From NCBI GenBank assembly GCA_963784765.1, contig CAWASP010000021.1, forward strand, positions 7,645 to 71,644: a DNA stretch of 64,000 nt, read 5' to 3'. Of this stretch, positions 41,448-59,870 are shown piece by piece. The position numbers and the translations under genes are program-made. Below the pieces are notes generated by a model. The model was not told where the DNA came from. It was given only the letters and a program-made list of their open reading frames with translations, and did no database searches. The stretch comes from an uncultured Thermoleophilia bacterium. GTDB lineage: Bacteria > Actinomycetota > Thermoleophilia > Gaiellales > Gaiellaceae. Position 1 is the stretch's first letter. Every line of letters begins with the position of its first letter.

Positions 41448-41466
41448 CCGGTCAACGCTCGCAGAC

Positions 41467-41498
41467 GGCGACCGGACGCCCCTCGCATCCCGGTCGCC
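41467..41498 (+). terminator. hairpin downstream of the HIT gene (terminator candidate, no U-tract)
   Basis: GGCGACCGG (41467-41475) and CCGGTCGCC (41490-41498) form a perfect 9-bp stem with a 14-nt loop. Confidence 0.35.
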
Positions 41499-41845
41499 GC
41501 TCACGCAGTCGCCCCCACGACGGCCGCAAACCGTGAAGGAGGCGGGTCGAGGCCCAGGCTCTCCCCGCCCGCGACCCGCCGAGACATCTATCGGCTCGAA
41601 GGCCTCCGTGCTTGAGCGAGACCCTGCGTGTGACGTGGTCGGGCGGAAGCAGGGGAGAGTGAGCTCCCGCCCGACCATCGTCAAGATTCGCGGGCGAAGC
41701 AGTACTCCTCCTCGGCCGTGCGCGATTCGCAGCGCCGTGATCGCCACGGACGGGGGAAACCCGCACTGCCTTTGCGTCCAAGCACCGACGAAAGCGCAGG
41801 CCCCTCCTCGTAGCGTCCTCGTCAAACCCGGCACCAGGAGGACAG

Positions 41846-43351
41846 TTGCTAACCGAGCGAACCGATTCGCCGCACGCCGTCGTCGACGAGCAGGTGCTCG
41901 AGCGGACCGTCGAGCGGTTCCGCGAAGCGGAGATCGTGCTTCCGCGCTTCGCGGAGCTGGCAGACCCGACGCTCGTTCCCACCCGCCTACGCAAGCGCCT
42001 CGCCGACGTCGGCCCGGACGACCCCCACCCACTCAACCTCTTCCGCGTCCACTGGTTCAACGACCGCGCCCGCACCGGGCTCGTCACCGTCCCGGAGCAC
42101 GTCGTGCTCCCGCCGGAGCTGACCGGCGTCCGGGCACCGATCGTCGTCGCGCTCGGCGACCGGTTCCCGATGATCGGGGCGCACAAGGTGCTCGCGACGT
42201 ACGGCTGCCTCGCGCCGCGCGTCGTCACCGGGTCGTTCGACCCGACCCGCGACCGCGCGGTCTGGCCCTCGACCGGAAACTACTGCCGCGGCGGCGTCGC
42301 CGTCTCGCGGCTGATGCGCTGCCGCGGGGTGGCCGTGCTTCCCGAAGGCATGAGCCGCGAGCGGTTCCACTGGCTCGAGCGCTGGGTCTCGGAGCCTGGA
42401 GACATCATCCGGACGCCGGGGACCGAGAGCAACGTCAAGGAGATCTACGACCGCTGCCACGAGCTCGAGCTCGATTCCCGCAATGTGATCTTCAACCAGT
42501 TCTCCGAGTTCGGGAACTACCTGGCGCACTATCTGGCGACCGGCACGGCCCTCGAGCAGGTCTTCGACTCGCTGCAGGAGACCAGGCCGTCGCTGCGGTT
42601 GCGCGCGTTCGTCTCTGCAACGGGCTCGGCGGGCACGATCGCAGCCGGCGACTACCTGAAGCAGCGGCACGGCACGCTGATCGCGGCCGCCGAGGCGCTC
42701 GAGTGCCCGACGCTGCTCGAGAACGGCTTCGGCGAGCACAACATCCAGGGGATCGGCGACAAGCACGTGCCGCTCATCCACAACGTCCTCAACACGGACG
42801 TCGTGCTCGCCGTCTCCGACCGCGCAACCGACCGGCTGGGCGTGCTCTTCGGCACCGAGACCGGACGGGACTACCTGCAGCGCCGTCGCGGCGTCGCCGA
42901 GGACGTGCTCGCCGAGCTGCCCTCGCTCGGGCTCTCGAGCATCTGCAACGTGCTCGGGGCAATCAAGCTCGCGCACCACTTCGGCTACGGCCCGGACGAC
43001 GTGATCGTCACGGTTGCCACCGACGGCGCCGCCATGTACGAGAGCGAGCGAACGCTCGCCCTCGGCCGGTACTACCCCGCCGGCTTCGACGACGTCGCGG
43101 CCGGCGAGACGTTCGGCGAGCACCTGCTCGGAACGACGAGCGATCACCTGCGTGAGCTGACCTCGAAGGAACGCGAGCGGATCTTCAACCTCGGCTACTA
43201 CACGTGGGTCGAGCAGCAGGGCGTGTCGATCGAGGACTTCGTCGCGCGCCGCGACCCCGCCTTCTGGGAGGACATCCAGGGGCGCACCGCGACCTGGGAC
43301 CAGGCGATCGAGGAGTTCAACGCCCGCACCGGCGTGCTGGAGACCCTGTGA
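41846..43351 (+). CDS. fold-type II PLP-dependent enzyme (Trp-synthase-beta superfamily, about 500 aa lyase/thiolase-like)
   Basis: 501-aa ORF. The TTG start is preceded by AGGAGG. The candidate PLP-lysine context is [14 protein letters not shown]. The Gly-rich loop is [12 protein letters not shown]. Confidence 0.7.
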
Positions 43352-44742
43352 GCCAGGCGGTGAGCCGGCTCGTCTGCTCGGGGTGCGGCTCCTCGCCGCA
43401 CCCGGCCGAGGCCTACCCGTTCCACTGCCCGAACGCCCGCCGGGGCGACGACGTCGACCATGTGCTGCGGCGGAAGCTCGACCTGTCACGGATCGACGCT
43501 CCGGCCGGCGACAGCGCCAACCCGTTCGTGCGCTTCCGGCCGTTGCTGCACGCCTACCAGGTCGGGCGGGCAGGCGGGCTCTCCGACGCCGCCCTCGTCG
43601 AGCTCGTGGGCGAGCTGGACGAGCGGGTCGCCGCCGTCGACGGGCACGGCTTCCGGACGACGCCGTTCTCCCGGAGCGACGAGCTCAGCGCCGAGCTGGG
43701 CTTCGCCGAGACGGGCGGCGTCTTCGTCAAGGACGAGACGGGCAACGTCGCCGGCTCGCACAAGGCACGGCACCTCTTCGGCGTCCTCCTCTGGCTCGAG
43801 GTGGCGGAGCGGCTCGGGCTCGCGCGCTGGGGCCGCCGCGACCTCGCGATCGCGAGCTGCGGCAACGCAGCCCTCGCGGCGGCCGTCGTTGCGGCAGCCG
43901 GGCGGCGACGGCTGCGTGTCTTCGTGCCGGTCGACGCCGACCCGGCCGTCCTCGCGCGACTCGACGAGCTCGGAGCCCTCGTGACGACGTGTCCCCGGCG
44001 CGAGGGCGTTCCCGGCGACCCGACCGTCCACGCACTCGAGGCGGCGCTCGCCGGTGGGGCGATCCCGTTCACCTGCCAGGGCAACCTCAACGGGCTGGCG
44101 GTGGAGGGCGGCGAGACGCTCGGCTGGGAGCTGGCGGCGAGCGGCCTCGAGCTCGACCGGCTCGTCGTGCAGGTCGGCGGCGGCGCGCTCGCGAGCGCCG
44201 TCGGCCAGGCGCTCGCCGAGGCACGGGGGCTCGGGCTCCTCGACGCGGTGCCGCGCATCGACACCGTGCAGACCGAGGGCGCCTGGCCACTCAAGCGTGC
44301 CTTCGACGCCGTCGTCGCCCGCGGCGGGATCGACGCCCTCCCGTACGCCGCGCGCCACCGCCACGAGTTCATGTGGCCGTGGGAGGAAGAGCCGGCGAGC
44401 ATTGCGCACGGCATCCTCGACGACGAGACGTACGACTGGTACGCCGTCGTCGAGAGCATGCTCCGGAGCGGTGGGGCGCCGGTCGTGGTCGGCGAGGAGC
44501 TGCTCGTGCAGGCGAACGACGTCGCGCGCCGCGCGACGGAGATCGCGGTCGACCACACCGGGTCGGCCGGGCTGGCCGGGCTGCTCGCGCTCCGCGACGC
44601 CGGGCTCGTCGCGGACGACGAGCGGGTGGCCGTGCTCTTCACCGGGGTCGACCGAACAGACACCAACGAACGAAAGGACGAACGAGATGCGGAGCTTTCT
44701 CGGCCGCGACATCCTGTCGCTGAAGGACTTCGAGCGCACTGA
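43348..44742 (+). CDS. PLP-dependent threonine-synthase-like enzyme with an N-terminal Cys cluster
   Basis: GTG 43348 overlaps the previous stop (GTGA). The N-terminus is [21 protein letters not shown]. The PLP-lysine context is [14 protein letters not shown]. The loop [12 protein letters not shown] is present. The last 18 codons overlap the next gene. Confidence 0.7.
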
Positions 44743-45643
44743 CTTCGACCGGGTCTTCGAGGCCTGCGACGAGCTGGCGCCGATCGCGAAAAACCGCCGC
44801 AACAGCGACGTGCTCGCGCACAAGACGCTGCTGACGGCCTTCTACCAGCCGTCGACGCGCACGCGGATGTCGACCGAGGCGGCGATGCACCGGCTGGGCG
44901 GCCACGTCCTCGGCTTCTCGGACGCGAAGATGACGCGAGCCGGCGACTTCTACCAGGAGTCGATGAAGGACACGATCCACATGCTCGAGTTCTACGGCGA
45001 CGTCATCGCGATGCGCCACTTCGAGCAGGGCGCCCCCACCGAGGCGGCCCACTGGGCCTCGGTTCCGGTGATCAACTGCGGCGACGGCTGGGGCGAGCAC
45101 CCGACGCAGGTGCTGACCGACCTCTACACGATCAAGAAGGAGCTCGGGACGCTCGACGGCCTGACCTACCTGCTCGTCGGCGACATGCGCATGCGGACGA
45201 TGCACTCGATCCTCTACGCGCTGTCGCAGTTCGACGCGAAGGCGTACGTCGTCGGCCCGCCCGAGATGTCGCTCCGGGACGACTTCAAGCTCGAGCTCGA
45301 CGCCCGGAACGTGCTCTACGAAGAGGCGGAGTCGACGGAGGACGTGATCGCCGACTGCGACGTGATCTACATGGAGCCGGTCGTCCAGGCCGACTACGAG
45401 CAGTCCCGCGTCGAGCGCGACAGCGGCTCGGTCGTGACGACGCCGCGCACCTACCAGGTGACCCGCGAGCTGCTGCGCACGAAGGCGAAGACGAAGTCGA
45501 TCATCCTGCACAGCCTGCCGCGGATGGACGAGCTTCCCTCGGACGTCGACATGACGCGGCACGCCCGCTACTGGCAGGAGGCGTTCAACGGCGTCGTTCT
45601 GCGCATGGCGCTGCTCTCGCTCGTACTGGGCGCGATGGAGTAG
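44687..45643 (+). CDS. aspartate carbamoyltransferase-like catalytic chain, E. coli/archaeal-type paralogue
   Basis: ATG 44687 is preceded by AAGGA. Motifs STRTRMS, GEHPTQVLTDL and ILHSLPRMDELPSDVD...YWQEAFNGVVLRMALLSLVLG are present. Confidence 0.8.
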   Translation: MRSFLGRDILSLKDFERTDFDRVFEACDELAPIAKNRRNSDVLAHKTLLTAFYQPSTRTRMSTEAAMHRLGGHVLGFSDAKMTRAGDFYQESMKDTIHMLEFYGDVIAMRHFEQGAPTEAAHWASVPVINCGDGWGEHPTQVLTDLYTIKKELGTLDGLTYLLVGDMRMRTMHSILYALSQFDAKAYVVGPPEMSLRDDFKLELDARNVLYEEAESTEDVIADCDVIYMEPVVQADYEQSRVERDSGSVVTTPRTYQVTRELLRTKAKTKSIILHSLPRMDELPSDVDMTRHARYWQEAFNGVVLRMALLSLVLGAME

Positions 45644-45645
45644 CC

Positions 45646-48234
45646 ATGGACTTCGTCCTGAACGGCAAAGAGGTCTCGGCCGACCCGCGCGACGACGAGA
45701 CCCTGCTGGAGCTCCTCCGCGAGGAGCACGGACAGCTGTCGGTCAAGGACGGCTGCTCGCCGGAGGGCTCGTGCGGGGCGTGCACCGTGATCGTCGACGG
45801 GCACGCCGTCGTCTCCTGCGCGCAAAAGGCGACCCGGGTCGCCGGCAAGCACGTGGTCACCCAGGAAGGGCTCACCGCCGAGGACCGTCGGCTCTGGGCC
45901 GACTGCTTCGTGGCGGCGGGAGCTTCCCAGTGCGGCTACTGCTCGCCGGGAATCGTGATGAAGGCCGAGGCGTTCCTCGCCAAGCACCCCGACCCGACAC
46001 GGCAGGAAGTCGCTCGGGCCCTGCTCGGCAACCTCTGCCGCTGCACCGGGTACGTGAAGGTGGTCGACGCGGTCCTCCACGCCGCCGCCGCCCACCGCGG
46101 CGTGCCGCCGCCCGTCCCGGAGCGCAGCGGCAGGGTCGGCGCACGCTCGGCGCGGTACGACGGGGACGAGCTCGCCCTCGGCGACAAGCCGTTCGTCGGC
46201 GACCTGACCGCGCCCGGGATGCTGCATGCCGCGCTCCGGTTCTCCGACCACCCACGGGCGCGCGTCGTCCGCATCGACACCTCGAAGGCGGCGGCGTTCC
46301 CGGGCGTGGTCTCCGTGCTGACGGCCGCGGACGTGCGGGGCGAGCGGCAGCAGGGCTCCCTCACGAGGGACTGGCGGCAGCTTGTCGCGGTCGGCGAGAC
46401 GACCTCGTACGTCGGGGACGTCCTGGCCCTCGTCGCGGCCGAGAGCCGGCACGCCGCCCGTGAGGCAGCGGCGCTCGTCGAGATCGAGTACGAGGTGCTC
46501 GAGCCCGTCACGTCGCCCTTCGAGGCGCTGGCAGAGGATGCGCCGTTGCTCCACGAGTCCGGCAACGTGCTCTCGGTCTCGCGTGTCGCGCGAGGCGACG
46601 TCGACGCAGCGCTCGCCGCATCGGCGCATGTCGCCAGCGAGAGCTACCGGACACAGTTCATCGAGCACGCGTTCCTCGAGCCGGAGTCGGCGCTCGCCGT
46701 GCCGGAGCAGAACGGCGACCTGCGCGTCTACTCGCAGGGCCAGGGCGTCTGGGACGACCGCCGTCAGATCGCGAGCCTCGTCGGGCTCCCGGAGGAGCGT
46801 GTCCGTGTGACCCAGGTCGCGACGGGCGGCGCGTTCGGGGCGAAGGAGGACCTGAACGTGCAGGGCCATGCGGCTCTGCTCGCGCTCGCGACGGGACGGC
46901 CCGTCCGCCTCACCCTCTCGCGGGCCGAGAGCCTCCGCTTCCACGCGAAGCGGCATCCGATGTGGCTCGAGTACACGGCCGGCTGCGACGAGGAGGGCCG
47001 TCTCACAGCGGTCCGTGCGCGCATCGTCGGAGACACGGGCGCCTACGCGAGCGTCGGCGACAAGGTGCTGGAGCGGGCGGCCGGGCATGCGTGCGGCGCC
47101 TACGCGGTGCCGAACGTCGACGTCGAGGCGACCGCGGTCTACACGAACAACCCGCCCTGCGGTGCGATGCGCGGCTTCGGCGTCAACCAGTCGAACTTCG
47201 CGCTCGAAGGCGTGCTCGACCTGCTCGCCGAGCGGGTCGGGATCGACGGCTGGGAGATCCGCTGGCGCAACGCGCTCGACGTGGGCGACCGCTTCGGCAC
47301 CGGGCAGAAGCTCGGACCGGGCGTCGGGTTGAAGAAGACCCTGCTCGCGGTGCGCGACGCCTACCGGGACGCGCAGTTCGCCGGCATCGCCTGCGGTGCA
47401 AAGAACACCGGGATCGGCAACGGCGTTCCCGAGCACGGCCGCGTCGTCCTGCGGGTCGAGGAGGACGGGGACGTGACGCTCTACCACTCGTGGACCGAGA
47501 TGGGCCAGGGTGTGCACACGGCGCTCGGCCAGATCGCGTGCGAGGCGCTCGAGCTTTCGCCCGAGCGGCTGCGCGTCCGCGTCGACACGATCCACGAGCT
47601 CGGCGCCGGTCAGACGACGGCCTCGCGCGCCACCGTTCTCGGCGGCAACGCGGTGCTCGACGCAGCGGAGAAGCTGAGGTCCGAGCTCGACGGCCGCCCC
47701 CTGGAGTCGCTTGCGGGCCGTGAGTTCGAGGGCGAGTACCTGGTCGACTGGACGACGGGGAACGACGCCGACGAGCCCGTCACGCACCTCGCCTACGCCT
47801 GGGCGACGCAGGTCGCGATCCTCGACGACGAGGGCCGCCTCGTGAAGGTCGTCGCGGCGCACGACGTCGGACGCGCGATCAACCCGACCCTCGTCGAGGG
47901 ACAGGTCGAGGGCGGCGTGCACATGGGGCTCGGCCAGGCGCTCTCCGAGGAGTTCGTGGTCGAGGACGGGGTGCCCGTCACCCGAACGCTGAAGTCGCTG
48001 CACATCATCCCGCCGACGGGGATGCCGGACGTCGAGTGCATCCTCGTCGAGGAGCCGCAGCCGGAGGGGCCGTTCGGCGCCAAGGGCGCCGGCGAGGCCG
48101 CGCTCGTGCCGACCGCAGCGGCCGTCCGCGGGGCGCTGCAGGCGTTCGACGGCGTCCACCGCACCGAGCTGCCGATGAAGGACTCGCCGGCGGCGAGGGC
48201 GGCGGTGCCGCACCTGGTCAAGGCCCACGCATGA
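45646..48234 (+). CDS. fused [2Fe-2S] plus molybdopterin-binding hydroxylase (XdhD-like xanthine dehydrogenase family protein)
   Basis: 862-aa ORF. N-terminal clusters are GCSPEGSCGACTV and CGYCSPG...CRCTGY. The Mo domain has GGAFGAKED and PFGAKGAGEAALVP. Confidence 0.88.
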   Translation: MDFVLNGKEVSADPRDDETLLELLREEHGQLSVKDGCSPEGSCGACTVIVDGHAVVSCAQKATRVAGKHVVTQEGLTAEDRRLWADCFVAAGASQCGYCSPGIVMKAEAFLAKHPDPTRQEVARALLGNLCRCTGYVKVVDAVLHAAAAHRGVPPPVPERSGRVGARSARYDGDELALGDKPFVGDLTAPGMLHAALRFSDHPRARVVRIDTSKAAAFPGVVSVLTAADVRGERQQGSLTRDWRQLVAVGETTSYVGDVLALVAAESRHAAREAAALVEIEYEVLEPVTSPFEALAEDAPLLHESGNVLSVSRVARGDVDAALAASAHVASESYRTQFIEHAFLEPESALAVPEQNGDLRVYSQGQGVWDDRRQIASLVGLPEERVRVTQVATGGAFGAKEDLNVQGHAALLALATGRPVRLTLSRAESLRFHAKRHPMWLEYTAGCDEEGRLTAVRARIVGDTGAYASVGDKVLERAAGHACGAYAVPNVDVEATAVYTNNPPCGAMRGFGVNQSNFALEGVLDLLAERVGIDGWEIRWRNALDVGDRFGTGQKLGPGVGLKKTLLAVRDAYRDAQFAGIACGAKNTGIGNGVPEHGRVVLRVEEDGDVTLYHSWTEMGQGVHTALGQIACEALELSPERLRVRVDTIHELGAGQTTASRATVLGGNAVLDAAEKLRSELDGRPLESLAGREFEGEYLVDWTTGNDADEPVTHLAYAWATQVAILDDEGRLVKVVAAHDVGRAINPTLVEGQVEGGVHMGLGQALSEEFVVEDGVPVTRTLKSLHIIPPTGMPDVECILVEEPQPEGPFGAKGAGEAALVPTAAAVRGALQAFDGVHRTELPMKDSPAARAAVPHLVKAHA

Positions 48235-49535
48235 CGGTCGTCGCCACGCTCGACCCCGTCTCGCTCGCGACCGGGGATCTCTGGGTCGACGGCGACCGGA
48301 TCGCGGAGACCGGCCGCGGCACCCGCATCGATAGCGGCGGCGCGCTCGTCGTGCCGGGAAACGTGTGCGCCCACACGCACCTGTATTCGGCGCTCGCTCG
48401 TGGCATGCCCTACGCCCTCGCCCCGCCGGAGAACTTCGTGCAGATCCTGCAGCGCATCTGGTGGCGCCTCGACCGCGCGCTCGACGAGGAGTCGATCCGC
48501 GCATCCGCGCTCGTCGGCGGCCTGGAGGCGCTCCTGTCCGGCACGACGACCCTCGTCGACCACCACGCCTCGCCGAACGCGGTCGACGGGTCGCTCGACG
48601 TGATCGCCGACGCGCTGCAGTCGCTCGGCGTCCGGTCGATCCTCTGCTACGAGACCTCCGATCGCGACGGCCCCGAGCGAGCGCAGGCGGGGCTCGCCGA
48701 GAACCGGCGCTTCCTCGAGCGCGTGGCGCGGGACGGGCCGCCGCTCGCCCGCGGCCTCGTCGGAGCGCACGCCTCGTTCACGCTCTCCGACGCGACGCTT
48801 GCCGGCTGTGCCGGCCTCGCACACGACCTCGAGAGCGGCCTGCACATTCACGCCGCCGAGGACGGCGCCGACGAGCGCGACGCGCTGGCCCGCGGCGGGA
48901 TGCGCGTCGTCGATCGGCTCGCCGCTGCGGGCGCGCTCGACGAGCGAACCGTGCTCGCGCACGGCGTGCACCTCGACGACGCGGAGATCGCCGCCGTGCT
49001 CGGTGCAGGCGCGACCGTCGTCCACAACGCGCGGTCGAACATGTCGAACTCGATCGGCCGGGCGCGGGTCGAAGCGCTCGGCCCGGGCCTCGCCCTCGGC
49101 ACCGACGGCATCGGCTCGGACATGTTCGAGGAGGCCCGCACCGCCTGGTTCCGGCTCCGCGAGGACGACGGCGCCGCCGCCCAGACCTGGCCGCTCGCGC
49201 GGCTCTCGGCCTCGGCAGAGCTCGCAGGGCGCGCGTTCGGCGAGCCGCTGCTCGGGACGCTCGTCCCCGGCGCGCCCGCCGACCTCGTGGTCCTCGACTA
49301 CGAGCCGCCCGCACCGCTCGACGAGTCGAGCTTCGCCGGCCACGCCGTCTTCGGCCTGTCGTCCCGCCACGTGCGCGACGTCATGGTCGCCGGCGAGTGG
49401 GTCGTGCGGAACCGCCGGCTCGTCCGCACCGACCAGACCGAGCTCTCCGTCGACGCGCGCGCCGCCGCCGCGCGGCTCTGGCAGCGGCTCGCCGAGACCG
49501 ACCCCCACCCGTTCGAGCCGAAGGGAGCTTCGTGA
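48231..49535 (+). CDS. SsnA-like amidohydrolase (chlorohydrolase / aminohydrolase family)
   Basis: ATG 48231 overlaps the previous stop (ATGA). The metal motif [11 protein letters not shown] is present, together with HASF...HIHAAE...HGVHL...LGTDG. Confidence 0.75.
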
Positions 49536-50536
49536 TGGAACGAGTCGCCTTGTACCTGCAGGACAAGCATCCGATCCGCGACGGCATGCGCTACGCCGAG
49601 CTGGCGGAGCAGGCGGGCTTCGAAGCGGTCTGGCAGGCGGAGAGCCGGCTCGTCCGGGAGGCGACGGTGCCGATGGCCGCGTACGCAGCGGTCACGGACC
49701 GGATCGGCATCGGGAGCGGCGTCGTGAACACGTGGACCCGCAACGTCGGTCTGCTGGCGGCCACCTTCTCGACGCTCGACGACCTCGCCCCCGGCCGCAT
49801 CAAGCTCGGCATCGGCGCCTGGTGGGATCCGCTCGCCGCGAAGGTCGGGATCGAGCGCCGCCGCATGCTCCAGTGCATGCGCGAGACGGTCGACGCGACC
49901 CGCCGGCTGCTGACGCTGGAGCGCGTCACCTACCACGGCGAGTTCGTGCACCTCGACGACGTCGAGATCGACATCGTCCACGGCGACCGGTCGCCCAAGA
50001 ACGTCCCCATCTACATCGGGGCGACCGCGATGAAGATGATGGAGCTCGCGGGGGAGATCGGCGACGGCGTGCTGCTCAACTACCTCGTCAGCCCGCTCTA
50101 CAACGCCGAGGCGATGGAGCACCTGACGGCGGGGGCGGCGCGCGCCGGACGCACGGTGGCCGACGTCGACCGGCCCCAGCTCGTCGTCTGCTCGCTCGAC
50201 GACGACCGGTCGGCCGCTCTCGACCGCTCGCGCGAGCTCGTGGCGCAGTACCTCGGCCAGCAGCCGCACATCATGAAGGCGAGCGGCGTCGACGACGAGC
50301 TGCTCGAGGAGATCGGCCGTGTGCTCACGTGGCCCGCGACGCCCGAGCAGATCGAGCAGGCGATGACGCTCGTCCCGGACGACGTCGTCCAGCTGATCAC
50401 CGCCTCCGGAACGGCGGACGAGTGCCGGACGAAGGTGCAGGAGTACGTCGACGCCGGCTGCACATGCCCCGTGCTCTACCCGCTCGGCGACGACGTCCAG
50501 GCCATGATCGACGCGTTCGCGACGGTTCGGGTGTGA
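49535..50536 (+). CDS. LLM-class (luciferase-like) flavin/F420-dependent oxidoreductase
   Basis: ATG 49535 is preceded by AAGGGAG and overlaps the previous stop (TGATG). It has a TIM-barrel LLM-like sequence ([11 protein letters not shown]..., [34 protein letters not shown]). Confidence 0.75.
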
Positions 50537-51399
50537 CGCAGGCGCTCCGGCCGCTCACGCTCGCAGACGCCCTTCGGGCGAGGGCGGCGCATCCGGACGC
50601 CGTGCCCGTCGCCGGCGGCACCGACCTGATGGTCTCCGTCAACTTCGGCCGCACTAGCCCACCCGTGTTGCTCGACCTGTCACGCCTCGAGGAGCTGAAG
50701 AGCGTCCGGCGCGAGAACGGCTCCGTCGTGATCGGAGCCGGCGTCACCTTCGCCGCGATCGCCGTCGACCCGCTCCTCCCCGCCTCGCTCCGGCAGGCGG
50801 CCCGCTCGGTCGGCTCGCCGCAGATCCGCAGCCGCGCCACCCTCGGCGGAAACGTCGCGACCGCCTCCCCGGCCGGCGACGGCATCCCGGTCATCGCCGC
50901 CCACGACGGCCGCGTCGTCGTCGCGTCGGAGGCAGGCGAGCGCCGCGTCCCCTGGGAGGAGTTCTTTCTCGGCCCGAAGCAGACGACGCTCGCGGCCGAC
51001 GAGCTCGTCGTCGGCGTCGAGCTTCCGCTCGCCGAGGGTCAGGGGTCGTTCGCCAAGATCGGGCCGCGCAACGCGATGGTGATCGCGATCGCGGGCGTCT
51101 GCCTGCAGCTCGACACCGAAGCGCGCCTGGTTCGGCTCGCGCTCGGATCGGTCGCACCGACGGTCGTGCGCGCGCGGGAGGCCGAGACGCTCGCCGGCGA
51201 CGCGCTCTGCTGGGACGACCCGGCCGAGCCGCCCTCTCCCGCGCTCGTCTCGGAGTTCTGCCGGCTCGCAGAGGCGGCTGCGCAGCCGATCGACGACGTG
51301 CGCGGCACGGCCGCCTACCGGCGGCATGCGGTGGGCGTGCTGTCCCGCCGGGCGCTCGAGTGGGCGCTCCACGACCGGAAGGAGGCGGCGGTGTGCTGA
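50533..51399 (+). CDS. FAD-binding subunit of a molybdenum hydroxylase (CoxM/XdhB/YgfM-like)
   Basis: GTG 50533 overlaps the previous stop (GTGA). The motifs AGGTDLMV and [15 protein letters not shown] are present. Confidence 0.85.
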
Positions 51400-51854
51400 T
51401 CCGGTGCCGCGTCAACGGCGTCGACCACGAGATCGAGGCGCCTGCGGCCGCCAGCCTGCTGACGCTCCTTCGCGAGGAGCTCCACCTGAGCGGGTCGAAG
51501 AACGCCTGCGAGCAGGGCGAGTGCGGTTCCTGCTCGGTGTGGCTCGACGGGGACGTGTGCTGTGCGTGTCTCGTGCCGGCCGCGCAGGCGGACGGCGCCG
51601 AGGTGCGGACGATCGAGGCGCTCGCCGGGCCCGGCCGGCTCCATCCCGTCCAGGAGGCGTTCCTCGAGGCGGGCGCCGTCCAGTGCGGCTTCTGCACGCC
51701 GGGTCTCGTCGTCTCGGTCGCCGACCTGCTCGCCCGCAACCCGCATCCCGACGACCGGACGATCCGCGAGGCGCTCGCCGGCAACCTCTGCCGGTGCACG
51801 GGCTATCAGAAGATCCTCGCCGCCGTCCATCTGGCCGAGGAGGCGGTGACATGA
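51393..51854 (+). CDS. [2Fe-2S] small subunit of a molybdenum hydroxylase (CoxS-like)
   Basis: GTG 51393 is preceded by GGAAGGAGG. The clusters CEQGECGSCSV and CGFCTPG...CRCTGY are present. Confidence 0.88.
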   Translation: MLIRCRVNGVDHEIEAPAAASLLTLLREELHLSGSKNACEQGECGSCSVWLDGDVCCACLVPAAQADGAEVRTIEALAGPGRLHPVQEAFLEAGAVQCGFCTPGLVVSVADLLARNPHPDDRTIREALAGNLCRCTGYQKILAAVHLAEEAVT

Positions 51855-54145
51855 CCACGGCGACACGCTCGGCGGGGGGCATCGGCGAACGGGCACGGCG
51901 CATCGACGGCGATCCGAAGGTCACCGGCGCCTTCGCCTACGCCAGCGACCTCCAGGCGGAAGGCATGCTCTTCGGCGTCACCGTCCGGAGCACGCACGCA
52001 TCGGCCCGGATCGTGTCGCTCGATCTCGCGGCTGCGCTGCGCGAGCCCGGCGTCGTGCGCATCCTCACGGCCGCAGACCTGCCGGCCGCGACCACGTTCG
52101 GCCTCGAGTTCTGCGATCAGCCCGTCCTCGCGAAGGATGTCGTTCGCTACGACGGCGAGCCGATCGCCGTGGTCGCGGCAGCAACGCTCGAGAGCGCGCG
52201 ACGCGCCGCGGGGGCGATCGAGATCGTCTACGACCCGCTGCCCGTCGTCTCCGACATGGAGGCCGCGCTCCGCCCGGACTCGCCGCGTGTCCACGAGTTC
52301 GGCAACGTCCTGCGCCACGTCCACATCCTCCACGGCGACCCCGGTGCCGAGGCGGACGTGTGGGCCGACGGCTACTTCGAGACCGCCATGCAGGATCAGG
52401 CTGCCCTGGGGCCGGAGGGAGGGCTCGCGGTGCCGGCCGCGGACGGGAGCGTCGACCTCTACGTCGCCACGCAGTGGCTCCACGTCGACCGCCAGCAGAT
52501 CGCTCCCTGCCTCGGCCTCGACGAGGAGCACGTGCGCGTGCACCTGGCGGGCGTCGGAGGCGCGTTCGGCTCACGCGAGGACATCCACATGCAGATTCAC
52601 GCCTGCCTGCTCGCGCTCTCCACCGGCCGAGCGGTGAGGATGGTCTACGGCCGTGAGGAGTCGTTCCACGGCCACGTGCACCGGCACCCGTCGAGGATCT
52701 GGATCCGCTACGGCGCGACCAGGAACGGCACGCTCGTCGCCGCGAATGTCCGGCTCCTCCTCGACGGCGGCGCCTACGCCTCCTCTTCCCCGGCCGTCCT
52801 CGCGAACGCGTCGACGTTCGCAGCCGGCCCCTACGACGTGCCGAACGTGCAGATCGAGGGCACCGTCGTCTACACGAACAACCCGCCCTGCGGCGCGATG
52901 CGCGGCTTCGGCGCCCCGCAGGTGTGTTTCGCGCACGAGTCGGCGCTCGACCTGCTCGCGGCGAAGCTGGGCATCGACCCGGTGGAACTGCGCGTCCGAA
53001 ACGCGCTGCGCGAGGGCTCCGTGCTGCCGACCGGCCAGGTGCTCACCGGCAGCGCGCCCGTCCAGGAGGTGATCGAGCGCTGCACGGCCATCCCGCTTCC
53101 TCCGGTCGAGCCCGCGCACGGACGCGACCCCACCGGCTATCCGGGAGGCGCGGGCAACGTCAGCCGCGGCGAGGCGCTTCGGCGGGGGGTCGGGTTCGCC
53201 GTCGGGTTCAAGAACATCGCCTACAGCGAGGGCTTCGACGACGCCGCGGAGGCGACCGTGACGCTGCGCCCGGGCCCGGACGGGCCGGTGGCGACGATCC
53301 GCACGGCCGCGGTCGACTACGGCCAGGGCCTGTACACCGTGCTCGCTCAGATCGTCCGGAGCGAGCTTCACGTCCACGACGTGCTGCTCGAGCCCGCCTC
53401 GACCGAATCGGGCTCTGCCGGGTCGACCTCCGCGTCCCGTCAGACGACGATGACCGGCGGCGCCGTGCTCGCGGCGTGCCGGGAGATCCGCACGGCCCTG
53501 GGCGGCGCCGAGCTCGACGAGCCGGTCACGCGCACGTGCACGTACCACCACCGGCCGACCACCGGCCTGGACGAGGAAGGGCAGGGGGACCCGCACGTTG
53601 CGTTTGCCTTCGTGGCCGAGCGTGCGGTCGTCGAGGTCGACGAGGAGCTCGGCCTCGTCCGTGTCGTCGAGCTCGCTGCCGTCCAGGACGCCGGACGCGT
53701 GCTCAACCCCCAGGGCGCCGAGGGACAGGTCGAGGGAGCCGCCGCGATGGGGCTCGGCCTCGCGCTCCTGGAGGAGGTCCGGCTGTCGGAGGGCCGGATC
53801 GAGAACCCGTCGTTCACCGACTACCTGATCCCCACGACGCTGGACGTCCCACCGATCGTCGCCCGGTTCGTCGAGGAGCCGGAGCCGGACGCACCGTACG
53901 GCGTCAAGGGGATCGGCGAGCTGGCGACGATCGCCGCGACGCCCGCGATCGTGGCCGCGCTCCGCGAGGCAACGGGGCGCGCGCTGAACCGCGTCCCGGT
54001 GCGGCCCGACGATCTGGTCGGCCTGCGTGGGCCGGCCGAGACCTCAGGGCCTCCACCCGTACCCGACGTCCCGGGCCAGCACGCGATCCCCGAGTACCTC
54101 GGGCTCGGCCTCGGACAACAGAAGCTGATGAAAGCGAGGATGTGA
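51851..54145 (+). CDS. molybdopterin-binding large subunit of a xanthine dehydrogenase family hydroxylase
   Basis: ATG 51851 overlaps the previous stop (ATGA). It is 764 aa. The motifs GGAFGSRED, NNPPCGAMRGFG and PYGVKGIGELAT are present. Confidence 0.88.
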   Translation: MTTATRSAGGIGERARRIDGDPKVTGAFAYASDLQAEGMLFGVTVRSTHASARIVSLDLAAALREPGVVRILTAADLPAATTFGLEFCDQPVLAKDVVRYDGEPIAVVAAATLESARRAAGAIEIVYDPLPVVSDMEAALRPDSPRVHEFGNVLRHVHILHGDPGAEADVWADGYFETAMQDQAALGPEGGLAVPAADGSVDLYVATQWLHVDRQQIAPCLGLDEEHVRVHLAGVGGAFGSREDIHMQIHACLLALSTGRAVRMVYGREESFHGHVHRHPSRIWIRYGATRNGTLVAANVRLLLDGGAYASSSPAVLANASTFAAGPYDVPNVQIEGTVVYTNNPPCGAMRGFGAPQVCFAHESALDLLAAKLGIDPVELRVRNALREGSVLPTGQVLTGSAPVQEVIERCTAIPLPPVEPAHGRDPTGYPGGAGNVSRGEALRRGVGFAVGFKNIAYSEGFDDAAEATVTLRPGPDGPVATIRTAAVDYGQGLYTVLAQIVRSELHVHDVLLEPASTESGSAGSTSASRQTTMTGGAVLAACREIRTALGGAELDEPVTRTCTYHHRPTTGLDEEGQGDPHVAFAFVAERAVVEVDEELGLVRVVELAAVQDAGRVLNPQGAEGQVEGAAAMGLGLALLEEVRLSEGRIENPSFTDYLIPTTLDVPPIVARFVEEPEPDAPYGVKGIGELATIAATPAIVAALREATGRALNRVPVRPDDLVGLRGPAETSGPPPVPDVPGQHAIPEYLGLGLGQQKLMKARM

Positions 54146-55164
54146 TGACCGACGCAGTGGCTGTCGACCGCACGACCCTGACCGGCCGCGACTACATCGA
54201 GACGCTCGACTGGACCGTCCCGGAGCTCGAGGAGGCGCTCGCCGTCGCGGCCGAGCTCAAGGAGGCCCGGAAGCAGGGGAAGCCGCACCGCCTGCTCCCG
54301 GACAAGACGCTCTACATGCTCTTCCTCGACAAGTCGACGCGCACGCGCAACGCGTTCGAGACGGGCATGACGCAGCTCGGCGGGCATGCGATCTTCCTCG
54401 ACGCCGACAAGACCCAGGTCTCGCACGGCGAGAGCCCGAAGGACACGGCGCTGACGCTGTCGGGCTACGGCGAGGGCATCGCGATCCGGCACGACCTTGC
54501 GCCGTACGAGGGCAACGCCTGGATGCGGGAGATCGCCCGCTGGGCCGACATCCCGCTCATCAACCTGCAGTGCGACGTCGACCACCCCACGCAGACGCTC
54601 GCCGACCTGATGACCCTGCGAGAGCATCGAGGCGAGAACCTCCGGGGGCTCAAGGTGGCGATGACGTGGGCCTACGCTCCGTCGTACGCGCGGCCGCTGT
54701 CCGTCCCGCAGGGCGTCGCAACGCTCTTCCCGCGCTTCGGCATGGACGTCGTGCTCGCCCACCCGCCCGGGTTCGACCTGATGCCGGAGGTGCTCGAGAA
54801 GGCGCAGCAGGCGGCCGCCGAGACCGGTGCGACCATCACGTTCGCCGACTCGATGGAGGAGGCGTTCGCCGAGGCCGACGTCGTCTACCCGAAGTCGTGG
54901 GGCCGGCTCGACGCGTTCACCGACGAGTCGAAGGCACTCGCCGAGTCAGGCGCCTACGCCGACTGGATCGCCGACGAGCAGAAGCTCGCGCTGGCGTCGC
55001 CGGATGTCCTCTACCTGCACTGCCTGCCGGCCGATCGCGGCCGCGAGGTCACCGACGCGGTGATCGACGGCCCGCACTCGGTCGTGTGGGACGAGGCGGA
55101 GAACCGCATGCACATCGGCAAGGCGCTCATGGCGCTGACGATGGGCGGGTTCGGGGACGCGTGA
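54145..55164 (+). CDS. YgeW-like (knotted) carbamoyltransferase of the OTCase/ATCase superfamily
   Basis: ATG 54145 overlaps the previous stop (TGATG). Motifs STRTRNAFE, DHPTQTLADL, WAYAPSYARPLSVPQG and HCLPADRG are present. Confidence 0.8.
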   Translation: MTDAVAVDRTTLTGRDYIETLDWTVPELEEALAVAAELKEARKQGKPHRLLPDKTLYMLFLDKSTRTRNAFETGMTQLGGHAIFLDADKTQVSHGESPKDTALTLSGYGEGIAIRHDLAPYEGNAWMREIARWADIPLINLQCDVDHPTQTLADLMTLREHRGENLRGLKVAMTWAYAPSYARPLSVPQGVATLFPRFGMDVVLAHPPGFDLMPEVLEKAQQAAAETGATITFADSMEEAFAEADVVYPKSWGRLDAFTDESKALAESGAYADWIADEQKLALASPDVLYLHCLPADRGREVTDAVIDGPHSVVWDEAENRMHIGKALMALTMGGFGDA

Positions 55165-56114
55165 TGGCTTCCAAACGCGCCGTCGTCGCGATCGGCGGCA
55201 ACTCGCTGATCAAGGATCGTGAGCACCAGTCGGTCCGCGACCAGTACATCGCGGCCGGCGAGACCTGCCGGCACATCGCGTCGATGATCACGGACGGCTG
55301 GGACGTGGCGATCAGCCACGGCAACGGGCCGCAGGTGGGCTTCATCCTGCGCCGCTCGGAGCTCGCGGCGCACGAGCTGCACGAGGTGCCGCTCGACGTC
55401 TGCGGCGCGGACAGCCAGGGTGCGATCGGCTACGAGCTCGCGCAGAACCTCGAGAACGACTTCCACCGGCTCGGCATCGACCGGCACGCGGTTGCGGTGG
55501 TCACGCAGGTGGAGGTCGCGGCCGACGACCCGGCGTTCGCGAACCCCACGAAGCCGATCGGCTCGTTCATGGACGAGGCGGCGGCGGTCGCGAGGCGCGA
55601 GAACGACGGCTGGGACGTCGTCGAGGATGCGGGACGTGGCTGGCGTAGGGTCGTTCCCTCGCCGATGCCGCTGCGGATCGTCGAGGTCGACGCGATTCGC
55701 TCGCTGATCGGCGCCGGATTCGTGGTCGTCTCCGTCGGCGGCGGGGGCATTCCGGTCGTGGCGAACGGCGACGGCCGGCTGACCGGTGTCGCGGCGGTCA
55801 TCGACAAGGACCTCGCGAGCGCGCTGCTCGCCAACTCGATCGACGCCGAGCTGCTGATGATCACGACCGCCGTCGAGAAGGTCGCGCTCGACTTCGGCAC
55901 GCCGAACGAGCGGTCGATCGACCGGATGACGCTGTCCGAGGCGAAGGAGCGGCTCGCGGAGGGCACGCATTTCGCCGCGGGGAGCATGGCGCCGAAGATC
56001 CAGGCGGTGGTCCAGTTCCTGGAGCACGGCGGCGACCGGGCCGTCATCACCGACCCCGACCACGTCGAGGGTGCCCTCACCGGCGAGACCGGGACGACGA
56101 TCGTCCGCGACTGA
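55164..56114 (+). CDS. arcC: carbamate kinase
   Basis: ATG 55164 overlaps the previous stop (TGATG). Motifs VVAIGGNSL, SHGNGPQVG, GGGGIPV and IDKDLAS are present. Confidence 0.9.
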   Translation: MASKRAVVAIGGNSLIKDREHQSVRDQYIAAGETCRHIASMITDGWDVAISHGNGPQVGFILRRSELAAHELHEVPLDVCGADSQGAIGYELAQNLENDFHRLGIDRHAVAVVTQVEVAADDPAFANPTKPIGSFMDEAAAVARRENDGWDVVEDAGRGWRRVVPSPMPLRIVEVDAIRSLIGAGFVVVSVGGGGIPVVANGDGRLTGVAAVIDKDLASALLANSIDAELLMITTAVEKVALDFGTPNERSIDRMTLSEAKERLAEGTHFAAGSMAPKIQAVVQFLEHGGDRAVITDPDHVEGALTGETGTTIVRD

Positions 56115-56122: not shown

Positions 56123-57688
56123 TCAACTCCGAACCTGGTTCGCCTCCGGCGAACCAGGTTCGGCTGAGTCCTCGGAGAGCTCGCCGGCCATGCGCAACCC
56201 GATCTCCTCGATGCTCTCCCGGTCTGTGACCTCGGAGAGCCGTCCCTCGTACATGACGACGATGCGGTCGTTGAGCGCGAGAATCTCGTCGAGGTCCTCG
56301 CTGAACAGCACGACCGCCGCGCCGGCCTCGGCGGCGTCGATCAGATGGGAGTGCACGGTCGCAACGGCCGAGACGTCGAGGCCACGGGTGGGCGACGACG
56401 CGATCAGGACCCTCATCGCGTCGGAGAACTCGCGCGCGATCACCACCTTCTGGAGGTTCCCGCCGGAGAGGTTGCCGGTCTCCATCTCCGGGCCTGATGC
56501 CCTGATGTCGAACCGCTGGATCGCAGCCTCCGCCTCCACGCGCATGCGCCGGAGCGGCAGGAAGGGACCAACCGAGTCGTGGCGATACGAGCGCAGCTCG
56601 AGATTCTCGGCGATCGAGAGGCTGGGCGAGACACCGGTGCCCATACGGTCCTCGGGCACCCAACGGATCCCGGCGTCGAAGGCGGTACGCGGGTCCCCGT
56701 TGCGCAACCGCTTGCCGTCGATCTCGATCCGGCCCTTCGTATGCGGGCGCAACCCGGCGATCGTCTCCGCAAGCTCACGCTGGCCGTTGCCGGCGACGCC
56801 GGCGACGGCGACGATCTCGCCCGCCTGCACCTGGAGCGAGACACCCTTGACGGCCGGGACACCGCGGTCGCCCTCTGCCCACAGATCGTCGAGCTCGAGC
56901 ACGGCCTTCGTCTTGACCGAGCTGCGGGGCGTCCGCCTCACCTGTTCGAGCTCCCGGCCGATCATCAGCGCCGCAAGCGACTGCGGCGACGCGTCGGAGG
57001 TCGAGACTGTCGCGATGGCCTTGCCGGCGCGCAGCACCGTCACACGGTCCGACACGGCCATCACCTCGTGCAGCTTGTGCGAGATGAAGACGACCGTCCG
57101 CCCCTCCGAGGCGATCTGGCGCAGCGTCACGAACAGCGTGTCGGCCTCGTCCGGTGTCAGCACCGCCGTCGGCTCGTCGAGGAACAGCACGCGGGCGTTC
57201 TGGTAGAGCGCATTCAGGATCTCGACGCGCTGCTGCTCGCCCACCGACAGCTGCCACACCCGCGCCCGTGGGTGGACGGGCAGGCTGTAGCGCTCTCCCA
57301 ACTCGAGCACCTGCCCCTCGACCGCGCCCGGGTTGATCCGGAAGTGGCGACCGGCGCCGAGACGGTCGCCGAGGACGAGGTTCTCGGCGACCGTGAACCG
57401 GTCGACGAGCCGGAAGTGCTGGTGCACCATCGAGACGCCCGCGTCGATCGCTTCCCGCGGGGAGTCGAAGCTCACGCGCTGCCCGGCGAGCAGGATCTCG
57501 CCCTCGTCGGGCTGGTAGAGGCCCGAGAGGACGTGCGAGAGCGTCGTCTTGCCGGCGCCGTTCTCCCCGAGCAGGGCGTGTACCTCGCCGGCGGCGGCAT
57601 GAAAGTCCACCCCGTCGTTCGCGACGACGCCGGGAAAGCGCTTGGTGATCCCCCGCGCCTCGATCGCAGGCCCCGACGCCGCCTCCAC
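56123..57688 (-). CDS. ABC transporter ATP-binding protein, tandem ATPase (BMP / nucleoside-sugar type)
   Basis: Start at GTG 57688 (VEAASGPAIEARGITKRF...). The first cassette has Walker A GENGAGKTT and LSVGEQQR. The second has LSGGNLQK. The rest of track ORF 56123..58234 is junk. Confidence 0.92.
   Translation of the reverse strand: MEAASGPAIEARGITKRFPGVVANDGVDFHAAAGEVHALLGENGAGKTTLSHVLSGLYQPDEGEILLAGQRVSFDSPREAIDAGVSMVHQHFRLVDRFTVAENLVLGDRLGAGRHFRINPGAVEGQVLELGERYSLPVHPRARVWQLSVGEQQRVEILNALYQNARVLFLDEPTAVLTPDEADTLFVTLRQIASEGRTVVFISHKLHEVMAVSDRVTVLRAGKAIATVSTSDASPQSLAALMIGRELEQVRRTPRSSVKTKAVLELDDLWAEGDRGVPAVKGVSLQVQAGEIVAVAGVAGNGQRELAETIAGLRPHTKGRIEIDGKRLRNGDPRTAFDAGIRWVPEDRMGTGVSPSLSIAENLELRSYRHDSVGPFLPLRRMRVEAEAAIQRFDIRASGPEMETGNLSGGNLQKVVIAREFSDAMRVLIASSPTRGLDVSAVATVHSHLIDAAEAGAAVVLFSEDLDEILALNDRIVVMYEGRLSEVTDRESIEEIGLRMAGELSEDSAEPGSPEANQVRS
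56129..56163. terminator. perfect 16-bp hairpin after carbamate kinase (operon terminator candidate), embedded in the 3-prime end of the convergent ABC ATPase ORF
   Basis: CCGAACCTGGTTCGCC-TCC-GGCGAACCAGGTTCGG starts 15 nt after the arcC stop. Confidence 0.6.
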
Positions 57689-59816: not shown

Positions 59817-59840
59817 CGCGGGGCGAGGTGGATGGTGGCC

Positions 59841-59870
59841 GTGGGGGGACGCCGGTCGGCGTCCCCCCAC
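59841..59870 (-). terminator. perfect 13-bp intercistronic hairpin between the binding-protein and permease genes
   Basis: GTGGGGGGACGCC-GGTC-GGCGTCCCCCCAC lies in the 63-bp gap after the substrate-binding-protein stop. Confidence 0.5.

Follow-up and report, generated by a model that had tools for sequence, protein, structure and literature searches.

Gene content and organisation of the operon

A 64,000-nucleotide stretch from an uncultured Thermoleophilia bacterium (GenBank assembly GCA_963784765.1, contig CAWASP010000021.1, positions 7,645 to 71,644; hereafter the window) carried eleven consecutive plus-strand coding segments at 41846-56114, named here g1 to g11 (Table 1). The products were two fold-type-II pyridoxal 5'-phosphate (PLP) enzymes, two carbamoyltransferases, a fused Fe-S and molybdopterin (Mo) enzyme, an SsnA-type amidohydrolase, a luciferase-like (LLM) oxidoreductase, a three-subunit xanthine dehydrogenase (XDH) and a carbamate kinase. 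The operon probably encodes the reductive urate (2,8-dioxopurine) pathway in an actinobacterial form, which would convert purine bases to pyruvate, NH3, CO2 and ATP.

The window had about 71% G+C, so that raw lists of open reading frames (ORFs) were crowded with spurious frames. The genes were resolved with a frame plot of third-codon-position G+C (GC3). Gene families were assigned by Pfam and NCBIfam profile searches, with bit scores set against the model cut-offs, and every domain and family call of an initial annotation of this DNA was upheld. Direct reading of the ten junctions showed that each was an overlap or a 2-nt gap. All seven overlaps listed in the initial annotation, which had described eleven coupled genes on the same strand, were found among them. 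The start of g3 was supported by Protein Data Bank (PDB) alignments with aspartate carbamoyltransferases (ATCases), which begin at g3 residues 4-7, and JGI gene calls made independently on a metagenome contig of 99% identity gave the same start. Close gene spacing is by itself frequent in high-GC operons, and conservation among related loci was the stronger test of the operon.

Table 1. Position, assignment and junctions of the operon genes and adjoining features in the window
Feature	Position	Strand	Basis	Start or junction with preceding gene
Leader/promoter region, 398 nt, non-coding, ahead of g1	41448-41845	+		
g1, 501-aa CysK/CBS-like fold-type-II PLP enzyme	41846-43351	+	PALP, cysK (both weak), AlphaFold2 (AF2) fold	TTG start, AGGAGG ahead of start
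g2, 464-aa threonine-synthase-like fold-type-II PLP enzyme, N-terminal Cys-rich motif	43348-44742	+	PALP, ThrC	GTGA at 43348, 4-nt overlap
g3, 318-aa ATCase paralog	44687-45643	+	TIGR00670	ATG 44687 behind GAAAGGA ribosome-binding site, 56-nt overlap
g4, 862-aa fused 2x[2Fe-2S] + molybdopterin enzyme, no FAD domain	45646-48234	+	TIGR03311	2-nt gap, TAG GC ATG at 45641-45648
g5, 434-aa SsnA-type amidohydrolase	48231-49535	+	NF005540	ATGA at 48231
g6, 333-aa F420-type LLM oxidoreductase	49535-50536	+	Bac_luciferase	TGATG, ATG at 49535
g7, XDH FAD-binding subunit	50533-51399	+	FAD_binding_5, CO_deh_flav_C	GTGA at 50533
g8, XDH 2x[2Fe-2S] subunit	51393-51854	+	Fer2, Fer2_2	GTG 51393 behind GGAAGGAGG, 7-nt overlap
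g9, XDH molybdopterin subunit, PucD type	51851-54145	+	TIGR03196 pucD	ATGA at 51851
g10, 339-aa YgeW-like carbamoyltransferase	54145-55164	+	PDB 3q98, YgeW motifs	TGATG, ATG at 54145
g11, carbamate kinase	55164-56114	+	NF009007, TIGR00746	TGATG, ATG at 55164
BMP/PnrA-family ATP-binding cassette (ABC) importer, convergent, 8 bp past g11 stop	56123-60986	-	ABC_tran x2, BPD_transp_2 x2, Bmp 156 bits	
Importer ATPase	56123-57700	-	Pfam/NCBIfam	
Importer permease	57688-58653	-	Pfam/NCBIfam	
Importer permease	58650-59870	-	Pfam/NCBIfam	
Importer binding protein	59880-60986	-	Pfam/NCBIfam	

Relation to the reductive urate pathway

Two 2025 studies and a commentary have assigned the E. coli cluster to a reductive breakdown of urate in which 2,8-dioxopurine is the intermediate (Li et al., PMC12507026; Liu et al., bioRxiv 10.1101/2025.04.24.650524; PMC12990295). 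The statement in the initial annotation that the E. coli chemistry is incompletely assigned is therefore outdated. In the published scheme XDH makes urate, which is converted to 2,8-dioxopurine by XdhD-YgfM in E. coli or by the fused Se-dependent XdhAC, a 2,8-dioxopurine dehydrogenase (DOPDH), in C. sporogenes. YgfK or UacX reduces 2,8-dioxopurine and SsnA then opens the ring to give ureidomethyl-hydantoin or 5-ureido-dihydrouracil. HyuA produces 2,3-diureidopropionate, YgeW phosphorolyses one ureido group and YqeA uses the carbamoyl phosphate to form ATP, while YgeY hydrolyses the other ureido group and YgeX converts diaminopropionate to pyruvate. The published biochemistry comes from E. coli, C. 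difficile and C. sporogenes (PMC12507026; bioRxiv 10.1101/2025.04.24.650524), and C. difficile UacX, a member of the PyrD/PreA family, was biochemically shown to be a 2,8-dioxopurine reductase. The pathway was presented as anaerobic, selenium-dependent and largely host-associated, and SsnA served as its marker gene in Li et al. (PMC12507026).

The resemblance to the E. coli region proposed in the initial annotation was borne out by g5, g10 and g11, which showed 42% (over 393 aa), 40% and 48% identity to E. coli SsnA, YgeW and YqeA, respectively. Both clusters also have an SsnA-linked Mo enzyme of the xanthine oxidase family, a companion XDH and purine-funnel genes nearby, and they share the logic of deoxygenation, reduction, ring opening, release of carbamoyl phosphate and a PLP lyase. 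In contrast to E. coli, the Mo enzyme of the window is of the TIGR03311 type and has no YgfM partner, an LLM protein stands for YgfK, an ATCase paralog for YgeY and two unrelated PALP enzymes for YgeX, and translational coupling joins all eleven genes in one operon. Searches with E. coli K-12 queries (tblastn, E ≤ 1e-3) gave no match to YgeX or YgeY in the window, and no match to YgfK in the window or in the 80 related loci described below. The sole HyuA-related match in the window was the housekeeping dihydroorotase at 24448-25749, 17 kb away. The absences and the additional genes reported in the initial annotation were thus confirmed. Its proposal of a distinct pathway was not supported, and the operon is better described as a variant of a characterised pathway than as wholly distinct.

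Co-conservation and gene exchange in related loci

A search with g5, limited to one genome per species, produced 80 related loci. Most belonged to Thermoleophilia/Gaiellales metagenome-assembled genomes (58-79% identity) and the rest to other Actinomycetota, Chloroflexota and Armatimonadota, while matches of 99-100% identity to the window proteins were found only on metagenome contigs, with no exact copy of g6 on record. For the 51 loci in which SsnA was flanked by 9 kb or more in each direction (full-flank loci), g1 was present in 46, g2 in 45, g3 in 46, g4 in 48, and g6 and g10 in 50 each; g11 was present in 31 and the XDH genes in 34-35. All eleven genes were carried by 18 loci, with a further 11 lacking the XDH genes only and 10 lacking carbamate kinase only. 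The set g4-g5-g6 was adjacent in 69 of the 80 loci, and the XDH set g7-g9 was optional, being missing from about a third of related loci. In distant phyla the gene order differed and the modules g1-g2-g3 (with or without g10-g11) and g4-g5-g6 were retained. The co-conservation on which the operon reading depends was therefore observed.

Gene exchange within the loci bears on single functions. The LLM gene was present in 77 loci and stood after SsnA in most of the 80 loci (50 of the 51 full-flank loci). Two Chloroflexota loci had no LLM gene and carried a PyrD/PreA-family, UacX-like gene after SsnA (L064:11346-12452 and L066:11320-12456), which supports g6 as an analogous reductase. In two hybrid Actinomycetota loci, L072 and L077, g2 and g3 were missing; upstream of g4 stood a true YgeY, which scored 476 bits (cut-off 321), and between g4 and SsnA stood a PLP gene of the ThrC family (307.7 against 303) (L077:4587-5801, L077:8458-9708 and L077:20170-21024; L072 alike). 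L077 also retained a lone g1 homolog on the opposite strand. Across the 80 loci g3 (63 loci) and YgeY (2 loci) never occurred together, which supports the view that g3 takes over the function of YgeY. The ThrC-family gene beside YgeY likewise supports a ThrC-like PLP enzyme, of which g2 is an example, in the role of YgeX.

Purine-funnel genes recurred as neighbours: adenine deaminase in 27 loci (TIGR01178 passed), an 8-oxoguanine-deaminase-family amidohydrolase (NF006055 passed) and a GuaB1-like protein. The importer ATPase was found beside the cluster in 22 of the 51 full-flank loci and the remaining importer parts were rarer. The convergent BMP-type importer noted in the initial annotation was confirmed in the window, and a role in purine or nucleoside uptake is likely. 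In one locus (L073:3765-7000, minus strand) a molybdoenzyme of the dimethyl sulfoxide reductase family (860 aa) and a YgfT/YgfS-like Fe-S protein lay immediately upstream of g4, and the pair may serve in electron transfer or have no connection with it.

PLP enzymes and opening of the second ring

The first gene, g1, matched PALP with 28.6 bits, under the cut-off, and its best NCBIfam match was cysK (63 bits against 351). Its AF2 model (pLDDT 84, pTM 0.89) showed a CysK/CBS core with extra helical N- and C-terminal extensions, and the best PDB folds retrieved with Foldseek were cysteine synthases and CBS (TM score on target about 0.8). The model was also considered as a guide to the substrate; it confirmed the CysK/CBS core and gave no substrate clue. 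K114 in the AHK motif, the candidate PLP lysine, the carboxylate loop STGNY and the phosphate loop GSAGT were invariant in 54 homologs. For g2, PALP was matched with 115 bits, the best NCBIfam match was ThrC NF006050 (73.5 bits, far under the cut-off) and the PDB matches were ThrC only (35 bits); GSHKARH (K138), ASCGN and GGGALAS were invariant in its orthologs. From these invariant motifs both proteins look catalytically competent. They share the PALP fold with YgeX but are non-orthologs. We predict that g2 is a functional substitute for YgeX (diaminopropionate ammonia-lyase) and that g1 is a beta-eliminating or beta-replacing lyase of an uncharacterised subfamily, acting on 2,3-diaminopropionate or 3-ureidoalanine.

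The window and 75 of the 80 loci yielded no gene for opening a hydantoin or dihydropyrimidine ring. In the other five (L063, L069, L075, L014 and the partly visible L021) hydantoinase- or allantoinase-type genes flanked the cluster, with scores of 447 against 393 for D-hydantoinase TIGR02033 and 526 against 358 for the allantoinase type. The hydantoin-opening step thus exists in the lineage and is probably unclustered in most genomes, the present one included, and the flanking genes of these few relatives indicate that the second ring opener is probably encoded elsewhere. Allantoin and ureidomethyl-hydantoin are one CH2 apart, so that some lineages may open the ring with an allantoinase-like enzyme. 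The allantoinase-type gene at L014:1974-3269 and the D-hydantoinase-type gene at L069:2085-3485, both on the minus strand, were divergent from g1. A HyuA substitute was also sought by clustering all called ORFs of the window and the 80 loci, and the recurrent amidohydrolases were the 8-oxoguanine-deaminase-family protein and adenine deaminase. The candidacy of g1 or g2 themselves as the HyuA replacement was rejected as the main reading because hydantoinase/allantoinase-type genes co-occur with g1-g3 in four loci (L014, L063, L069 and L075).

The same observations could be read as a different lower chemistry behind the same upper pathway, which we consider unlikely though not negligible. One ureido group would be phosphorolysed and a PLP enzyme, for example g1, would eliminate urea from 3-ureidoalanine (albizziin) at the beta position or act on cyclic 5-amino-dihydrouracil, making a hydantoinase unnecessary and leaving g3 another role. 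The rarity of linked hydantoinases fits this proposal, as does the count of three new genes (g1, g2 and g3) where three known ones (HyuA, YgeY and YgeX) are missing. Members of the CysK/CBS clade to which g1 belongs form aminoacrylate intermediates and tolerate diverse beta-leaving groups, and the lone g1 of L077 stands beside YgeY and a ThrC-like gene. However, the four loci with both a putative ring opener and g1-g3 show that a HyuA step is compatible with g1 and g2, and the cluster contains neither urease nor urea carboxylase. Moreover, g1 retains the amino-acid carboxylate loop, and the carbamoyl-phosphate site of g3 is intact, with g3 and YgeY never in the same locus.

Molybdenum enzymes, SsnA and the LLM oxidoreductase

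Subunit g7 combined FAD_binding_5 and CO_deh_flav_C domains (XdhB family, 173 bits), g8 combined Fer2 and Fer2_2 (pucE/XdhC, 165 bits) and g9 passed the pucD equivalog TIGR03196 (826 against a cut-off of 784). By family g7-g9 are thus a three-subunit XDH, with adjacent FAD, 2x[2Fe-2S] and Mo subunits and a Mo subunit that passes an equivalog cut-off, and they are predicted to convert hypoxanthine and xanthine to urate.

The fused enzyme g4 passed TIGR03311 (1005 against 830) and contained Fer2, Fer2_2, Ald_Xan_dh_C (hammerhead), MoCoBD_1 and MoCoBD_2 domains. Its best PDB matches were Desulfovibrio aldehyde oxidoreductase, which has the same architecture, and in third place the Se-dependent nicotinate dehydrogenase 3hrd_A (296 bits); the latter resemblance agrees with the placement of DOPDH nearest Se-dependent nicotinate dehydrogenase (Liu et al., bioRxiv 10.1101/2025.04.24.650524). 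The gene is translationally coupled to g5. Family, architecture and this linkage suggest, by analogy, that g4 is a urate 6-dehydroxylase of the DOPDH/XdhAC type. For g5, the next-best family after SsnA scored 154 bits, about 275 bits lower, and the enzyme is predicted to open dihydro-2,8-dioxopurine hydrolytically.

The LLM protein g6 matched Bac_luciferase (PF00296) with 235 bits. Its top 10 PDB and top 17 NCBIfam matches were all coenzyme F420 enzymes or families, all under their specific cut-offs. The best relatives were Mer (170 bits in NCBIfam, 123 bits in PDB), FGD, hydroxymycolate dehydrogenase and Adf, and monooxygenase families scored at most 48 bits. As a non-homologous replacement at the same gene position, g6 would be an F420H2-dependent 2,8-dioxopurine reductase in place of YgfK/UacX.

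The initial annotation had the ring hydroxylated twice, reduced and opened, with recovery of carbamoyl phosphate and ATP. In a distinct oxidative pathway of this kind both Mo enzymes would hydroxylate the ring, the LLM protein would reduce it or act as a flavin monooxygenase, and SsnA would open it. Both g4 and g9 are xanthine-oxidase-family hydroxylases, NCBIfam names TIGR03311 a xanthine dehydrogenase and LLM families include FMN monooxygenases. This reading is nevertheless improbable. The SsnA-linked Mo enzyme runs reductively in the characterised homologous clusters. A complete canonical XDH is already present in the window and is optional in the relatives, whereas g4 is fixed to SsnA. The scores of g6 lie far nearer F420 reductases than monooxygenases, and a UacX-like reductase takes its place in Chloroflexota loci. 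Double hydroxylation is probably wrong for g4, which by the XdhD/XdhAC analogy most likely works reductively; hydroxylation would then be confined to g7-g9.

Carbamoyltransferases and carbamate kinase

The best PDB matches of g10 were E. coli YgeW (3q98) and 2yfk, with which it has the motifs WAYxPSYxxPLSVPQG and HCLPAD in common. The kinase g11 passed both NF009007 (391 against 266) and TIGR00746 (358.9 against 358.25). The pair thus supplies the YgeW-type carbamoyltransferase and carbamate kinase of the pathway, and g10 is predicted to release carbamoyl phosphate from 2,3-diureidopropionate by phosphorolysis of one of its ureido groups.

The assignment of g3 is less direct. It passed the ATCase equivalog TIGR00670 (259 against 237), its best PDB matches were ATCases (about 240 bits) and the names given by JGI and NCBI to close homologs were "aspartate carbamoyltransferase (catalytic subunit)" throughout. 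On these grounds g3 could be an ordinary second ATCase which would pass the carbamoyl phosphate of g10 to pyrimidine synthesis and have no catabolic role. Comparison with the P. abyssi, plant and E. coli ATCases and with PyrB of the window showed that g3 has the same fold and length and keeps the carbamoyl-phosphate motifs STRTR, HPTQ and HSLPR (HxLPR) as well as the R167-equivalent arginine. In E. coli ATCase the segment (T/L)RxQxER supplies R229 and Q231 to the aspartate beta-carboxylate. In g3 this segment is replaced by YMEPVVQADYE (EPVVQxDY), which contains no basic residue, and across 63 orthologs the conservation of MEPVVQ is 95% or more. Remodelling also affects the 80s loop, which is 3 aa longer than in ATCase (KMTRAGDFYQES). 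The window has its own pyrB (25746-26723) with the canonical LRMQRER in a pyr operon, making g3 the second ATCase paralog of the genome, and g3 is fixed in the catabolic module g1-g2-g3 and exchanged for YgeY in two loci. An ordinary ATCase role is very doubtful on this evidence.

The comparison indicates that the carbamoyl-phosphate and alpha-carboxylate sites of g3 are retained and that its side-chain pocket is new. The remodelled pocket would suit an amino acid that carries an N-alpha-ureido group and whose side chain is not a carboxylate, for example 3-amino- or 3-ureido-2-ureidopropionate. We infer that g3 is a second catabolic carbamoyltransferase which phosphorolyses the N-alpha-ureido group and replaces the hydrolase YgeY. 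The naming of its family as aspartate carbamoyltransferase is then probably a systematic mis-annotation that affects thousands of metagenomic records.

Two carbamoyltransferases would fit a substrate with two ureido units, as in 2,8-dioxopurine. Degradation of another N-heterocycle such as nicotinate or a pyrimidine, which the versatility of SsnA-family amidohydrolases and LLM proteins and the similarity of g4 to nicotinate dehydrogenase could suggest, is highly improbable given the PucD equivalog match, the recurrent purine-funnel neighbours, the adjoining BMP/PnrA-type importer and the two ureido units implied by two carbamoyltransferases and a carbamate kinase, where nicotinate would yield none and pyrimidines one.

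Proposed pathway

Purine bases would be imported, possibly via the BMP ABC system, and deaminated by enzymes encoded elsewhere. The PucD-type XDH (g7-g9) would oxidise hypoxanthine and xanthine to urate, g4 would take the 6-oxo group off urate to give 2,8-dioxopurine and g6, in the place of YgfK/UacX, would reduce the C6=N1 bond with F420H2. The SsnA-type g5 would open the ring to ureidomethyl-hydantoin or 5-ureido-dihydrouracil, and an unlinked cyclic amidohydrolase would open the second ring to 2,3-diureidopropionate; it is less likely that g5 performs both hydrolyses. Phosphorolysis of one ureido group each by g10 and g3 would release two carbamoyl phosphates, compared with one where YgeY hydrolyses, and g11 would convert carbamoyl phosphate and ADP to ATP. 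Finally, g1 and/or g2 would convert 2,3-diaminopropionate to pyruvate and ammonia in the place of YgeX. Starting from hypoxanthine, XDH would release four electrons and g4 and g6 would consume four, which would put the route in redox balance.

Several observations weigh against the assignment to the 2,8-dioxopurine pathway. DOPDH was reported to work only anaerobically and to be oxygen-sensitive. Cultured Gaiellales are aerobes. With 27% identity to E. coli XdhD, a score of 249 bits against the cut-off of 1102 for the XdhD-type model TIGR03313 and no insertion bearing E606, g4, which the initial annotation called XdhD-like, is not of the strict XdhD type and belongs to the fused Firmicutes type of TIGR03311. 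It was likened to C. sporogenes XdhAC by family and architecture rather than by direct alignment, and the NCBIfam name of TIGR03311 is "selenium-dependent xanthine dehydrogenase". The DOPDH signature A1078T/S was non-discriminating, as g4 has T and the XDH subunit g9 has S at this position. In loci that lack g7, g4 has neither an FAD partner nor an identified electron donor. YqeB, YqeC and MocA had no match in the window, and none of the 80 loci gave one either (SelD was not searched for). The score of g5 was just under both SsnA cut-offs (NF005540, 429.7 against 444; TIGR03314, 416 against 455.5), and g10 was under all NCBIfam cut-offs (YgeW, 258 against 453; ornithine carbamoyltransferase, 256 against 306), partly because the YgeW insertions are missing from it. 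The lack of a linked hydantoin ring opener counts here as well. The proposal gives no reason for two PLP enzymes, and L077 keeps g1 alone beside YgeY and the ThrC-like gene.

Published DOPDH active-site signatures were not usable as a criterion for g4, since the E606 insertion was absent, A1078T did not discriminate and the F1009 region was not reliably alignable.

The most specific form of the proposal is offered tentatively: abundant soil Actinomycetota (Gaiellales/Thermoleophilia) would possess a Se-independent, F420-driven 2,8-dioxopurine pathway in which the second ureido group is phosphorolysed by an ATCase paralog. Both ureido units of urate would then be saved as carbamoyl phosphate, with a yield of two ATP per urate instead of one, and two new PLP enzymes would finish the C3 unit.

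Comparison with known systems

The Firmicutes variants (C. sporogenes XdhAC, C. difficile UacX/UacY and E. faecalis EF_2570-EF_2582) resemble the operon in having a fused Fe-S and Mo enzyme with no FAD domain, which in the E. faecalis cluster is encoded by EF_2570. They also provide precedent for non-homologous replacement, with YgfK or UacX as the reductase and YgeW or UacY as the ureido-cleaving enzyme. In contrast, their enzymes are Se-dependent and strictly anaerobic, whereas no selenium-trait genes were seen at the present loci, and the reductase and the second ureido-cleaving enzyme of the window come from yet other families.

The nearest description is one paragraph on Chloroflexota SsnA neighbourhoods in which a PF00296 "F420 luciferase-family" protein replaces YgfK/UacX and was proposed as an F420-dependent 2,8-dioxopurine reductase (Li et al., PMC12507026). 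The LLM protein in place of YgfK, reported in the initial annotation, is indeed present, but this kind of replacement had already been noted in that paragraph. The remark was made at the Pfam level, and it describes no gene set, second carbamoyltransferase, PLP enzymes or absence of HyuA and YgeY. Neighbourhoods in that study were coloured by Pfam family, which would count g1 and g2 as "YgeX" and g3 and g10 as "YgeW". Actinomycetota are named in that study only as SsnA holders (PMC12507026). Full-text literature searches retrieved nothing further on such variants. Among the 80 loci the LLM type was mainly found in Thermoleophilia/Gaiellales. Because of their UacX-like gene, the Chloroflexota loci L064 and L066 are exceptions to the published general statement, which gives this phylum the F420 enzyme.

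The F420 reductase variant was therefore known in passing, and the remaining gene set was undescribed. The new element is an actinobacterial set with an F420-type reductase, an ATCase-derived carbamoyltransferase and two PLP enzymes, with no HyuA, YgeY or YgeX and no visible Se trait.

The arginine deiminase pathway, with a catabolic ornithine carbamoyltransferase and a carbamate kinase, is alike in obtaining substrate-level ATP from ureido phosphorolysis through carbamoyl phosphate. It differs in substrate and context, and in the operon two carbamoyltransferases may feed one kinase.

The operon and its relatives suggest that this core chemistry is shared widely among uncultured Actinomycetota of soil; protein searches with g1 and g3 gave at least 8000 candidates each, and the abundance of the gene set in soil metagenomes is new. 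The variant would use another reductant (F420), shows no visible selenium trait and may have a more energy-efficient lower branch. It offers candidate enzyme functions in an ATCase paralog probably mis-annotated as PyrB, two PLP subfamilies and a putative F420-dependent purine reductase. Such alternative parts could help the engineering of urate-degrading strains.

Leader region and other features of the window

The leader contained a very stable hairpin at approximately 41631-41684 on the plus strand (GGTCGGGCGG...CCGCCCGACC, -45 kcal/mol, z = -4.85), which lies some 170 nt ahead of g1 and is not followed by a U-tract. It could be the terminator of the upstream HIT gene or a regulatory structure. 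A gathering-threshold Rfam scan of the window matched two tRNAs only, no sigma-70 or terminator consensus was found in the leader, and neither the leader nor the hairpin was conserved among the related loci; no known RNA or riboswitch was thus recognised in the 398-nt leader.

A GC3-supported ORF at 40028-40885 (minus strand, 285 aa), flanked by CorA and the HIT gene immediately ahead of the operon, had no NCBIfam or Pfam match and was conserved on the JGI contig L082. Another GC3-supported ORF, at 27399-28601 (plus strand, 400 aa), had no NCBIfam match. A sensor kinase (36990-38612) with a smaller ORF just downstream (36328-36993) was also located upstream of the cluster. Cyclic di-GMP signalling proteins, one with GGDEF and HD-GYP-type domains and one of the PAS-GGDEF type, were found at 32910-34841 (plus strand) and 62788-63777 (minus strand). 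No link of these proteins or of the sensor kinase to the operon was established.

At 18975-27306 on the minus strand, 15 kb upstream of the cluster, the window carried the housekeeping pyrimidine operon in complete form, pyrR-pyrB-pyrC-carA-carB-pyrK-pyrD. Its CarB (20457-23408, minus strand, only 983 aa) matched the NCBIfam models in two segments, residues 3-399 to model positions 2-401 and residues 422-966 to positions 509-1053. The ORF was uninterrupted, and about 22 residues thus stood in the place of about 100 model positions, approximately the oligomerisation domain.

The region 1-17716 contained core housekeeping genes encoding an M16 peptidase, PNPase, IF-2, NusA and CoaBC. Together with the uniform G+C content, these housekeeping surroundings place the catabolic operon in the core chromosome rather than in an obvious island. 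The two tRNA genes of the window were located at 31952-32024 and 63857-63929.

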